A stretch of 64,000 nt of DNA, from assembly GCA_038893995.1 (NCBI GenBank), contig JAWAQK010000002.1, forward strand, positions 20,529-84,528, given 5' to 3'. Position numbers and translations under genes: made by a program. Shown in pieces: positions 48,898 to 59,207 of this stretch (position 1 is its first letter; every line of letters starts with the position of its first letter). Under the pieces are notes generated by a model that was not told the DNA's origin, searched no databases, and saw only the letters and a program-made list of their open reading frames with translations. The DNA is from Candidatus Thorarchaeota archaeon (GTDB lineage: Archaea; Asgardarchaeota; Thorarchaeia; Thorarchaeales; Thorarchaeaceae).

Positions 48898-50655
48898 TCA
48901 ACCCAACTTACTGAGGTCCTCTTCGACCTCCTGTCTCAAGCGCCTTATCTCCTCAAACAGACTGGATTCCTGGACCTCCCTGGCTGACACCTCGAAAGAG
49001 TCTCTGAATTTCCTCACAGTACCACGGACTGTAATTCTGGCCCCTCTTATCTCTTCTAAGAGTCCGGTTCCCCCTTTCCCCTTCTCGCTGATTTCAATCG
49101 CACTGGCCCGTGCCAACTCCTCTGCAACAGAGTCGAACAGAGTGACCCTCACTGTGTTTCCAGATCCATCATCCAGCGTGATCTTGTATAGGAGAATTGG
49201 CACCGGCTTGTGCACCTTTCCGTGTGCACTACACGCGTATCCTTCCTCAGATTCATCCACCTTCTTTCTACATCCCGGGTGATCACAGGCCAAGTAGAAT
49301 ATGTCCGACTCCTGTACTGCCACTACTATTCCCTCAACCTCAATGTATTTCTTCTCGAATGAATCGTCTATGTCGCACATTCTGACCCTCTTAGGTCTAG
49401 GTTGCAAGTGTTCCTCGAGAGATGAGATCTCCACATCTGTGATCACGATGTCCTCTGGGTTTCTCTCCAGTTCTCCCTGTCTTCCCACATGAAGTTCCGG
49501 TTCTCCTCGAATCCCCTCCTTCACATAACAATGCCTGATCCTTACCAGATCTCCTTCTCTGAGTTGAGAAGCCAGCTCCGCCTTCTCGTTCCAGAATGTG
49601 ACTCTGACGGCTCCTGAATTGTCCGCGACCACGACGTTTCTGAGCCTGCCACTTCTCCCCTCCTTCTCGAATCTCCTTTCCTCCATCACACTTATGACCT
49701 TGGCCTCTATGTCCACATCGGTCATGCTGGTTTCGAGTCTCGAAATGGGTGTGAGTCCAACAGATCTAGTCTGCGTTTCGAAACTGGCCTGGTCAACATC
49801 GATCTTGTAATCCAGGTTTCTTTCAATCACTGATGATCTGCCGGCATGAACCTCTATCTCGCCATTAAGTCCCTGCTTGGTGTAAGCCCCCGTGAGTCTT
49901 ACTACCTCCCCCACATTCACATCCTTCATCTTCTCTGCATGGGCGTCCCAAAACACTATTCTGGCCGATCCTGTTTCATCAGCGCCTCTGATACTCATGA
50001 TCGTCCCTTTCGTGCCATCTCGACTGCGCGTAAATGTCTTGAGTCCCTGTGTTTGGACAACTTTGAATACTAGTGTGATGTCGCTTGCTGGAACCTGAAG
50101 ACTACCGATCTTGACCGTTTCCTGTTTCACATTGACTACGGACTTGAATACATCCGCTTCTTCTCCGTCCATGACCCTCATCTCCCCTGTGTGGCCGAGG
50201 CTCAACTCAAGGGCATCTCTTAGTCCCCTCCTTGCAGAGGCTCCTCGTATCTGGATCACATCACCGACAGAGATCTCGCCTTCTTCTACGACCTTCGTCT
50301 TGTCATCCCACAGGGCAACTCGTATCTGTCCTGACTCATCTGCTACGACGATACTGGCTACCTTGCCTTCTCCACTACTCTTAGAGAAGGTCCTCACTGG
50401 GTCAATCCTTACTATCATTGCTGTAAGCACAACATTCCTCATGTTCTCATTCAGATCTGATATGCGCATCCTTGAAGACCTGGGCTGCTGTAGGTCGACA
50501 CCAAGTTCTCTCGCGACGATCATGGCCGCAGACTCGTCATTGATCAGGTCCATTCCAATATGCTGACGCTTCTTTCGGATGAGGTCCAGGATCTGCTTTC
50601 GGTCGTACTCCGTGTTTCTCAATACTATCTCAATCATTTCTTCTAGTGTTAGCAA
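48898..50655 (-). CDS. rpa: Replication protein A (multi-OB-fold ssDNA-binding protein with a C-terminal zinc finger)
   Basis: 585 aa with about four tandem OB folds (repeated ...V.V.G.V... blocks) and a CDHPGCRKKV...CSAHG zinc motif. Confidence 0.8.
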   Translation of the reverse strand: MLTLEEMIEIVLRNTEYDRKQILDLIRKKRQHIGMDLINDESAAMIVARELGVDLQQPRSSRMRISDLNENMRNVVLTAMIVRIDPVRTFSKSSGEGKVASIVVADESGQIRVALWDDKTKVVEEGEISVGDVIQIRGASARRGLRDALELSLGHTGEMRVMDGEEADVFKSVVNVKQETVKIGSLQVPASDITLVFKVVQTQGLKTFTRSRDGTKGTIMSIRGADETGSARIVFWDAHAEKMKDVNVGEVVRLTGAYTKQGLNGEIEVHAGRSSVIERNLDYKIDVDQASFETQTRSVGLTPISRLETSMTDVDIEAKVISVMEERRFEKEGRSGRLRNVVVADNSGAVRVTFWNEKAELASQLREGDLVRIRHCYVKEGIRGEPELHVGRQGELERNPEDIVITDVEISSLEEHLQPRPKRVRMCDIDDSFEKKYIEVEGIVVAVQESDIFYLACDHPGCRKKVDESEEGYACSAHGKVHKPVPILLYKITLDDGSGNTVRVTLFDSVAEELARASAIEISEKGKGGTGLLEEIRGARITVRGTVRKFRDSFEVSAREVQESSLFEEIRRLRQEVEEDLSKLG

Positions 50656-50787
50656 TGGAATTCCCTTCGATTCCAGTGTGTTTCACCTGAAATTACCCGC
50701 TGGCCACCTTTAAACGTCTTCATTGATGGATCTCTTCACCGTCATGATGATAAGCGACCAGATCATCCTCTGCGTTCGCGAACTGAC

Positions 50788-57131: not shown

Positions 57132-57319
57132 CTTCGAGTCTGTTCACTGTTCAGATGTGTCAGGTACCTGGTAGACGACTCCTGATGTAAAGAACAGGTC
57201 GGGAATGTGATCTTGCACTGACCTCAGTATCCCCTCCCCTGCCCTGTTCGATCGTAGACACCCCCAGTCAAAAGAGATAAAAATGGTTCAGTTGAGCTCG
57301 TTGCTGGAGGCTCCAGACG

Positions 57320-57502
57320 GTGCCCAAGACAACAAAGAAGCGCAGTGGGAAGAAGGGATCCGGACCGATGCCATCCGGTGGGGCGGGTCTCATAAGATTC
57401 TTCGAAGACGAAACCCCTGGTGTCAAGGTCGGTCCCGTCGTGGTGGTCGTACTAGCCGCCATGCTCATTGTTGCTACGGTACTTGCGCATGTGCTGACTT
57501 GA
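57320..57502 (+). CDS. secG: Preprotein translocase subunit Sec61beta (SecG)
   Basis: 60 aa, GAGLIRFFEDETPGVKVGP followed by one transmembrane helix. Confidence 0.8.
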   Translation: MPKTTKKRSGKKGSGPMPSGGAGLIRFFEDETPGVKVGPVVVVVLAAMLIVATVLAHVLT

Positions 57503-57571
57503 ACGAACGTATCCGAGCCTAAGAATTATAAGGCCTTCCCAGTGCACCCCACCAGGGTCGGTGAAGCAGCA

Positions 57572-57850
57572 ATGAAAGTGAGTTCATCCGTGAATCGGTA
57601 CTGTCCCAGATGCAGGGGATACAGAGAACACTCAACATCGATCTACAAGAAGGGAAAGGACCGATCCTTGTCCGCTGGCGCCCGAAGAATGAGGCGACGT
57701 ACCAAGGGTTACGGATCGTTTCCAAAACCAATTCAAAAACGTTTTTCGAAGACCACCAAGAAAGTTTCATTGAAGTATAAGTGCAAGGAATGTGGTTATC
57801 AAAGTCAGAAGAAAGGCATGCGTCTCAAGAAGGTCGAGATTGAGCGATAG
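57572..57850 (+). CDS. rpl44e: 50S ribosomal protein L44e (eL42); ORF-track start at 57542
   Basis: NRYCPRC...H..IYKKGK...KGYGS...KTTKK...KCKECG. Confidence 0.85.
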   Translation: MKVSSSVNRYCPRCRGYREHSTSIYKKGKDRSLSAGARRMRRRTKGYGSFPKPIQKRFSKTTKKVSLKYKCKECGYQSQKKGMRLKKVEIER

Positions 57851-57971
57851 ACCCTTCACTGTTTTCTACTACTCATGTCGATAGAGTTATAATCACCAGA
57901 AGAAGTGTGGTCCTAGCTGCCCCAGAAGCAGCCTCCATTCCCGGAGTCATGTGGATTGAAACCAGAGGTGA

Positions 57972-58178
57972 TCAGATCTGAGTAAGGGTGATATTATTCC
58001 CCAGCCCACATCACGCTTCCTGCGAGTGAAATGTCTGGACTGTGATAACGAGCAGATCATATTCGGTTGCGCCTCTACGGAGGTCAAGTGTCTGAAGTGC
58101 GGAAAGCTTCTTGCACGACCCTCTGGAGGAAAGGCGCGTCTTGAGCCCACAGCCCGAGAATTGGAGATTCTGCAGTAG
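57972..58178 (+). CDS. rps27e: 30S ribosomal protein S27e, with the start codon unresolved (no ATG, GTG or TTG in the first 18 codons)
   Basis: Translation gives ...TSRFLRVKCLDCDNEQIIFGCASTEVKCLKCGKLLARPSGGKARLE, the C4 zinc ribbon of S27e. It is missed by the ORF track. The open frame follows an in-frame TGA at 57969; the first GTG is at 58026. Confidence 0.7.
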   Translation, partial: SDLSKGDIIPQPTSRFLRVKCLDCDNEQIIFGCASTEVKCLKCGKLLARPSGGKARLEPTARELEILQ

Positions 58179-58210
58179 ACTCCTTTCTGGCTTCACAAAC
58201 TGGAGATGAA

Positions 58211-59011
58211 ATGTGTATGGTCCTCAGGAGAGCTGAATGGCCCCAGGTCGATGACTTCGCAATTGCGGTCGCGACGAAAGTTACGTCCTACGGCGCATAT
58301 GTGACTCTACCCGAGTACAACAACAAGGAGGGTTTCATTCACATCTCTGAGATCAGCAGCACATGGGTACGCAATATTCGAAATCACATACACGAGAACC
58401 AGCGGGTCGTCGTCAAGATCTTGCAGGTCGATCCAGAGAAGGGACAGATTGACTGCTCGCTCCGAAGAGTATCGGCCGAGGCTGCCCGTGCCAAGAACAA
58501 CGAGTGGAAGCGAGCCCAGAAGGCAGAAAGAATCCTCGAACAGCTTGCAAGCGACTCGAATATGACCCTTCAGGAGACCTATCGGGCGGTGGGCTGGCCC
58601 CTCGAAGATCATTTTGGAGAGATCTACACAGCGCTCGAGAAGATAGCCGTAGAAGGGGAGGCTGCACTTGTGTCGGTTGACATACCCCGCGAGCTTCGCG
58701 CGCGTCTAATAGAACTTGCCAGGTCAAGGATTGAGACTCCCTCAGTGGAGTTGGATGGCGAGCTGAATATACAGGTCCCAGGGATTGATGGCGTTGAGGT
58801 GATCAAGAAAGCGCTATTAGCTGGTCTCAGTGTTGCGAAGAATAACAGGAGCTCCACAGTTGATATCTACACGTTAGGATCTCCTCGTTACAAGTTGAGG
58901 ATCACTGGTCCTGACTACAAAGAGGCAGAGTCAGTCCTGTCCGCGGTCGTTGAGGCTGTTTCTGGTATCGTTCGTGCGCAGGGTGGAGTTGTTTCGCTCA
59001 CCAGGAAGTAG
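58211..59011 (+). CDS. eif2a: Translation initiation factor aIF2 alpha subunit
   Basis: S1 domain (VATKVTSYGAYVTL...GFIHISEISSTWVRNI), then helical and alpha/beta domains; about 265 aa. Confidence 0.88.
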   Translation: MCMVLRRAEWPQVDDFAIAVATKVTSYGAYVTLPEYNNKEGFIHISEISSTWVRNIRNHIHENQRVVVKILQVDPEKGQIDCSLRRVSAEAARAKNNEWKRAQKAERILEQLASDSNMTLQETYRAVGWPLEDHFGEIYTALEKIAVEGEAALVSVDIPRELRARLIELARSRIETPSVELDGELNIQVPGIDGVEVIKKALLAGLSVAKNNRSSTVDIYTLGSPRYKLRITGPDYKEAESVLSAVVEAVSGIVRAQGGVVSLTRK

Positions 59012-59018
59012 ATCGCAT

Positions 59019-59207
59019 ATGCCATCGCTATTCAAGTGCGCCCAGTGTGGTTCATACACACTGCGGGACACATCTTGTCCAAAATGCAATGGCAAGGTAT
59101 TTGATCCAGAGCCTCCGAAGTTTAGCCTAGTTGACAAGTATGCGGAGTATAGACGAAGGGCAAGGAAGATGGGCCGAAGTGCCACAGGCATGAATCAGTC
59201 AACATGA
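59019..59207 (+). CDS. nop10: H/ACA ribonucleoprotein subunit Nop10; the ORF track begins at 58950
   Basis: MPSLFKCAQCGSYTLRDTSCPKCNG...PPKFSLVDKYAEYRRR; conserved L44e-S27e-aIF2alpha-Nop10 neighbourhood. Confidence 0.8.
   Translation: MPSLFKCAQCGSYTLRDTSCPKCNGKVFDPEPPKFSLVDKYAEYRRRARKMGRSATGMNQST

Follow-up and report, generated by a model that had tools for sequence, protein, structure and literature searches.

A ribosomal protein S27e gene of Thorarchaeota that probably initiates at a near-cognate CUG codon behind a long Shine-Dalgarno sequence

Where translation of the ribosomal protein S27e (eS27) begins, and whether its gene is intact at all, are the questions raised by a Thorarchaeota locus that lacks a canonical start codon at the expected place. 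The window, that is, the whole 64-kb stretch of DNA that was analysed, holds a conserved S27e frame (…TSRFLRVKCLDC…) whose open part begins at 57972 and contains no ATG, GTG or TTG before the GTG at 58026; initiation at this GTG would cost the protein 16 residues, among them those of the conserved PxSRFLRV block. These statements of the original prediction were borne out by translating the reading frame, as was its remark that S27e had been missed in the mechanical list of open reading frames, which gives just a 50-aa ORF from the GTG (58026-58178).

The gene is part of a conserved archaeal cluster formed by Sec61beta, L44e, S27e, aIF2alpha and Nop10, and the neighbourhood of L44e, S27e, aIF2alpha and Nop10 is common to archaeal eS27 genes. 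The cluster and its surroundings comprise the following features:

57320-57502: Sec61beta
57572-57850, plus strand: ribosomal protein L44e, the upstream neighbour, with a TAG stop at 57848-57850 and a Pfam Ribosomal_L44 match of 94.6 bits; the exact protein is found on contig L081
57978-58178, plus strand: S27e (eS27) coding sequence of 66 codons and a TAG stop, with the proposed start CTG at 57978-57980
58026-58028, plus strand: GTG, the first canonical in-frame start, being Val17 of the conserved SRFLRVKC block and rejected as the real start
58217-59011, plus strand: aIF2 alpha subunit, the downstream neighbour, with Pfam S1 and EIF_2_alpha matches; the exact 264-aa product is found on L081 and L082
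End at 59207: Nop10
Strand opposite to the cluster: STT3/AglB-like gene

Two observations concern these neighbours in their own right. The aIF2alpha gene has ATG codons at both 58211 and 58217 (in the segment 58206-58219); the latter (264 aa) is the one chosen in public gene calls and in alignments of homologues, an exact-protein look-up of the 266-aa form starting at 58211 gave no match, and the spacing of the GGAG at 58202-58205 favours the ATG at 58211 over the other. In addition, one of the nearest relatives (L165 1-1214 and L166 1-1032, from GCA_027031705.1 and GCA_029855925.1) carries upstream of Sec61beta a 752-aa protein with weak LAGLIDADG and HTH matches, where L163, L164, L168 and the window have SHMT and MazG genes instead; an insertion of the homing-endonuclease or intein type may account for it.

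Regarding the product, translation from the CTG gives (M)SKGDIIPQPTSRFLRVKCLDCDNEQIIFGCASTEVKCLKCGKLLARPSGGKARLEPTARELEILQ, a protein of 66 residues whose N-terminal peptide is (M)SKGDIIPQPTSR. The frame matches Pfam Ribosomal_S27e (PF01667) with 76.4 bits against a gathering cut-off of 24.5 (E = 1.4e-21), from residue 12 onwards when the frame is translated from stop to stop, and the C4 zinc ribbon is present as C19-L-D-C22 and C38-L-K-C41. The 66-aa product is collinear over its whole length with archaeal eS27 chains of known structure (E = 1e-18), which measure 62-67 aa and include those of Thermococcus and Pyrococcus (6tmf_Y and 4v4n_BW), and it belongs to the same length class; query residues 5-65 align with residues 4-62 of a 63-aa chain, the full N-terminus being recovered only with the start at CTG 57978. 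Both the zinc ribbon and the N-terminal I-I-P-x-P-x-S-R-F-L-R-V-K-C block are shared with archaeal eS27, whereas the start of those genes is ATG, GTG or TTG and that of the window gene would be CTG. Moreover, the 15 codons from the CTG to the GTG at 58026 differ from those of the relatives mostly by synonymous changes (pS ~0.6-0.97, pN ~0.21-0.36), and the resulting N-terminal pN/pS of ~0.3, a weak measure on a short segment and over long branches, is consistent with constraint on these codons at the protein level.

Upstream of 57972 the frame is closed by three stops in the spacer, at TAG 57882-57884, at 57957-57959 and at TGA 57969-57971, the last of them two codons before the CTG. Two further features of this segment bear on how that closure has been read:

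57949-57981, plus strand: out-of-frame uORF of 10 codons, MWIETRGDQI*, from ATG 57949-57951 to TGA 57979-57981, whose TGA overlaps the CTG (cTGa)
57965-57973, plus strand: Shine-Dalgarno sequence GAGGTGATC, 4 nt upstream of the CTG, including the in-frame TGA 57969-57971 (GAGG-TGA-TC)

The original prediction had placed an ATG at 57948 in the S27e frame, with an in-frame TGA seven codons later and the peptide MWIENQR*. The TGA at 57969-57971 is present in that frame, sitting inside the Shine-Dalgarno sequence, but the ATG is located at 57949-57951 and is shifted +1 relative to S27e, so that the distance of seven codons was a miscount and the ATG opens an ORF of its own, ending at the TGA 57979-57981. 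Read from 57948, the S27e frame gives HVD*NQR*SDLSKGDIIPQPTSRFLRVKCLDC… (HVD*NQR*SDLSKGD…), and the proposed peptide turns out to be a splice of two frames, joining four residues of the uORF to three of the S27e frame.

This arrangement bears directly on recoding, one of the explanations first offered, in which S27e would be reached either by readthrough of the TGA or by a programmed -1 frameshift from the ORF of ATG 57949, which does overlap the beginning of the S27e frame in a -1 relationship. Such an event is effectively excluded by the sequence, since the ATG is out of frame and readthrough of the TGA at 57969 leads back only to the TGA at 57957 and the TAG at 57882, with no usable start; the 8-nt overlap (57972-57979) contains no X XXY YYZ slippery site or homopolymer run, an N-terminal extension is found in no relative, and the fold of the leader is unremarkable (z = +0.46). 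A tiny spliceosomal intron (GTAAGG…CAG, 57981-58003) was considered separately and rejected, as the TGA would still close exon 1 and the operon is of the archaeal, prokaryote type.

The start codon was compared across Thorarchaeota in loci retrieved by means of aIF2alpha, 80 of them from species-representative genomes and another 80 from metagenomes. The S27e peptide was compared with all of them by tblastn, the codon aligned with 57978-57980 of the window was read, and duplicates were removed, leaving 79 distinct Thorarchaeota loci and defining one feature:

57978-57980, plus strand: CTG at the family start position, from the alignment of the 79 distinct Thorarchaeota loci

TTG stands at the aligned position in 37 loci, ATG in 34, GTG in 5 and CTG in 1, which is the window genome, with an ATG one codon away in the other 2; a canonical start is therefore found at exactly this codon in 76 of the 79. 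The relatives' canonical start corresponds to 57978, and a clean ATG at the equivalent of 57948, a pattern that the original prediction had raised, was not found among them. TTG starts so common (37/79, over loci L001-L168) are unusual for the gene of a highly expressed ribosomal protein, and the members of the clade with a long L44e-S27e spacer all carry TTG except for the CTG of the window and the ATG of L048.

The best of the fetched relatives share only 65-69% identity in aIF2alpha with the window. The four nearest (L084/L168, L164 and L165), the closest relatives standing at 67-69%, have TTG in all cases, so the CTG likely arose from a TTG start through a single T-to-C transition in the first base. 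It is seen in one lineage only. The search of genome contigs, metagenome contigs and 5.8 billion proteins returned nothing between 69% and 100% aIF2alpha identity, and for this reason there is no closely related sequenced sister in these collections, whose closest relatives reach ~69% identity in aIF2alpha or 83% in S27e.

The sequence in front of the start codon is also shared by the family. All 79 loci have a Shine-Dalgarno of the GGTGA(T) type a few bases upstream of the aligned codon, and its spacing, counted from the end of the longest anti-Shine-Dalgarno match, is most often 4 nt (49/79), followed by 5-6 nt (25/79). In the window, GAGGTGATC is followed by AGAT and then by the CTG. No ATG, GTG or TTG is found by direct reading in any frame within 12 nt downstream of it, leaving the CTG as the sole plausible partner of this site. 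Initiation at CTG, which was among the options of the original prediction, hence gains strong support from both the aligned starts of the relatives and the position of the Shine-Dalgarno.

Regarding the strength of the pairing, the anti-Shine-Dalgarno GGAUCACCUCCU, that of the canonical archaeal 16S 3' tail, was assumed for this genome, whose 16S rRNA would under this model be expected to end in GGAUCACCUCC. With this assumption, the window shows complementarity over 9 contiguous nt while the remaining 78 loci reach 4-8 nt, and its predicted duplex of -16.3 kcal/mol is the strongest of the 79 (median -10.4, next best -13.6). The window Shine-Dalgarno CAGAGGTGATC differs from the clade consensus CAGCGGTGATA at exactly two positions, both extending the pairing, which would be the expected direction of change if a weak start were being compensated. 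The strong Shine-Dalgarno probably compensates for the weak CTG start, as judged from a single case and from the assumed anti-Shine-Dalgarno.

A start further downstream was considered as well, either at the ATT codons 57993 or 57996, behind GGGTGAT (57986-57992), or at the GTG 58026, giving an S27e shortened at its N-terminus. The GTG is the first canonical start in the frame, and GGGTGAT followed by ATT ATT does resemble a Shine-Dalgarno with its start codon; however, GGTGAT (57987-57992) codes for the conserved Gly-Asp within K-G-D and is again coding sequence in the relatives, and its spacing to the ATT codons would be 0 or 3 nt instead of the 4-6 nt of the family, so that the ATT option of the original prediction fits less well. 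No Shine-Dalgarno-like motif precedes the GTG, a start there deletes residues that align with the solved eS27 chains, and any downstream start would leave the strong Shine-Dalgarno at 57965-57973 without a partner. Taken with these points, a downstream start is improbable.

The reproducibility of the CTG is relevant to another explanation, namely that of a consensus or sequencing error, or of a minority allele, with T as the true base at 57978. A single base is enough to turn the CTG into the TTG of all nearest relatives. The DNA is nevertheless 100% identical to the window, including the CTG, across 3,470 and 2,030 bases in two further assemblies, which are a 3.5-kb contig of GCA_038825165.1 and the Logan assembly of SRR27730047. 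The three assemblies, which agree at every base that they have in common, could go back to shared reads or to read sets that overlap; on the other side, they were made by different pipelines and agree, substitution errors in a consensus are uncommon, and the adjacent Shine-Dalgarno is also altered, in a direction that is sensible only if the start is weak. An error at this base is therefore unlikely, as is the sequencing or assembly error that the original prediction had listed among its explanations.

The CTG start is also already adopted by public automated GenBank annotation. GCA_038825165.1 has a 66-aa gene called at the matching coordinates (L081 885-1085), and the exact 66-aa protein, with Met at the CTG, is deposited as MEM2143660.1 and MEM4734267.1 under the name "30S ribosomal protein S27e". 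An exact-protein look-up of the 50-aa S27e starting at GTG gave no match.

The upstream ORF, although out of frame, could take part in initiation in a different manner, with ribosomes that terminate at its TGA (57979-57981) reinitiating at the CTG. This would be a sub-mechanism of the CTG start and not another gene model, comparable to translational coupling of the ATGA/TGATG type, where the upstream stop overlaps the downstream start as it does here (cTGa). The overlap is exact and the uORF, from its ATG at 57949, is read through the Shine-Dalgarno. Reinitiation is nonetheless rather unlikely, as the uORF is not conserved in the sequences of the relatives, its ATG is preceded by a GGAG at a distance of only 2 nt, a poor spacing, and no TATA-like element is positioned to make it leaderless. 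The overlap is likely to be a matter of chance, since any upstream ATG in the matching frame, together with an A directly following the CTG, suffices to produce it. Unlike coupled genes, the uORF is a non-conserved element of 10 codons with no evident initiation signal, and coupling is not needed to account for the start.

Another option had been an incipient pseudogene, that is, a decaying or silenced gene, with S27e supplied from another copy or dispensable. The lack of a canonical start agrees with this, and the search for a second copy covered the 64 kb of genome at hand, where none was found. The ORF is otherwise intact, without frameshift or internal stop, all four cysteines (C19, C22, C38 and C41) are kept, the product is collinear with the solved eS27 chains, and the low N-terminal pN/pS points the same way; in addition, synteny and the Shine-Dalgarno are retained, the latter even strengthened, and eS27 is established as universal and single-copy in archaea. 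Decay of the gene is thus very unlikely.

In the region between L44e and S27e, Thorarchaeota form two groups. In one of them, the L44e stop overlaps the S27e Shine-Dalgarno (TAGGTGAT) with a spacer of 9-12 nt, while in the other the spacer measures 119-686 nt; the window, with 127 nt, belongs to the latter, whose members differ from the other Thorarchaeota also in having a promoter-like motif of their own. The elements of this spacer are as follows:

57877-57893, plus strand: BRE/TATA-like motif GTCGATAGAGTTATAAT, near-invariant in the Thorarchaeota clade with the long L44e-S27e spacer
57916-57932 and 57933-57946, plus strand: two tandem hairpins of an inferred 5' leader, GCTGC-CCCAGAA-GCAGC and CTCC-ATTCCC-GGAG, from single-sequence folds

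The 17-nt motif GTCGATAGAGTTATAAT is present in 22 of the 22 distinct long-spacer loci, at a constant 91-102 nt upstream of the S27e start (the window and L002-L007, L016, L023, L030, L033, L035, L048, L053, L084, L086, L087, L110, L114, L115, L164, L166 and L168), and is conserved far above the surrounding spacer across lineages at ~60-70% protein identity. It resembles an archaeal BRE/TATA promoter and is likely the one of S27e.

As to the leader, per-sequence folds place two hairpins at a similar position in most related leaders, which is weak evidence of a shared structure, and RNAalifold found no consensus pairs in an automatic alignment of 18 leaders. In the relatives, a first hairpin GAAGAAGCCC-loop-GGGYCCTTTTC is often followed by a second one, CTGCC-loop-GGCAG, the two being separated by a T-run that is absent in the window. 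Folded as a single sequence, the spacer does not exceed shuffled sequences in stability (z = +0.46), the scan of 57300-58300 against Rfam yielded matches at chance level only, all far below the gathering scores, and a scan for bacterial-type terminators and promoters was uninformative. The predicted two-hairpin element could be a ribosomal-protein leader or an attenuator. Together, these elements suggest that in the long-spacer clade S27e is served by a promoter of its own and by a structured leader, with functions assigned from sequence, which fits Shine-Dalgarno-dependent initiation, a mode that tolerates non-AUG starts (PMC4705826, PMC5622118).

The reading preferred for this locus, to which a probability of about three in four is given, is that of a functional and intact S27e gene at 57978-58178 that would initiate at the near-cognate CUG at 57978. 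The mRNA would carry a leader, with the conserved TATA-like element (57887-57893) as its probable promoter, and the 30S subunit would be placed by the long Shine-Dalgarno pairing (GAGGTGATC, 57965-57973). In the P site, initiator Met-tRNA would then accept the near-cognate CUG despite a mismatch at its first base, and the outcome would be a normal eS27 of 66 residues beginning with Met.

In those prokaryotes in which it has been tested, CUG initiates poorly, which makes its use surprising for an abundant and essential ribosomal protein. In the study of prokaryotic start-codon switches by Belinky, Rogozin and Koonin (2017, PMC5622118), changes from UUG to CUG are documented but very rare, with one case among 2,468 ancestral UUG starts, and stronger or better conserved Shine-Dalgarno sequences tend to go along with weak starts. 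The S27e gene of the window is likewise a probable UUG-to-CUG switch, led by a Shine-Dalgarno that is stronger than in its relatives; it differs from those cases in being from an Asgard archaeon and in affecting a highly expressed, essential ribosomal protein, the class with the most pronounced selection for strong starts. In Archaea, UUG and GUG starts are tolerated on mRNAs led by a Shine-Dalgarno (PMC4705826).

A comparison can also be made with CUG initiation in eukaryotes, where the first-position mismatch by the initiator tRNA would be common to both, and the archaeal aIF1, aIF1A and aIF2 are homologous to the eukaryotic fidelity factors (PMC4705826). Eukaryotic initiation, however, proceeds by scanning and depends on the Kozak context, whereas in the window a prokaryote-type mRNA would be recognized by Shine-Dalgarno pairing.

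The use of CTG does not appear to extend beyond S27e in the 64-kb window, a small sample, which gave no sign of genome-wide use. The scan for a Shine-Dalgarno with a CTG before the first canonical start returned six sites, five of them in shadow or junk frames and one ambiguous, and no other convincing CTG start was seen. The ambiguous case is an OB-fold/RPA-like gene on the minus strand (48898-50682, 585-594 codons), whose first canonical start is TTG 50655; a CTG with a Shine-Dalgarno-like site lies seven codons before it, at 50676 (segment 50655-50682).

With respect to its role, the CUG start could be more than a tolerated mutation and form part of a translational control device that tunes S27e, to which the near-invariant promoter-like motif, the two-hairpin leader of constant length, the weak TTG start of the clade, here weakened further to CUG, the strongest Shine-Dalgarno of the family and the overlapping stop of the uORF could all contribute. 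It might act, for example, through autoregulation by eS27 or a neighbouring protein on the leader, or through termination and reinitiation at the CUG. Such a device is doubtful on the present sequence features; if true, it would provide an Asgard example of functional near-cognate initiation.

For annotation, the consequence is more immediate, as ORF finders limited to ATG, GTG and TTG miss this essential gene or truncate it to 50 aa, while the GenBank pipeline calls it correctly, and a missed or truncated S27e can distort completeness estimates of metagenome-assembled genomes (MAGs) as well as the concatenated ribosomal-protein phylogenies of Asgard archaea. The locus is a rare case of a known type of start-codon switch and reveals no new mechanism; its value lies in being a clean natural switch from UUG to CUG in a highly expressed, essential gene, in which the strengthened Shine-Dalgarno fits compensatory evolution. 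The case suggests that the Asgard initiation machinery may be able to use CUG when given strong Shine-Dalgarno pairing.
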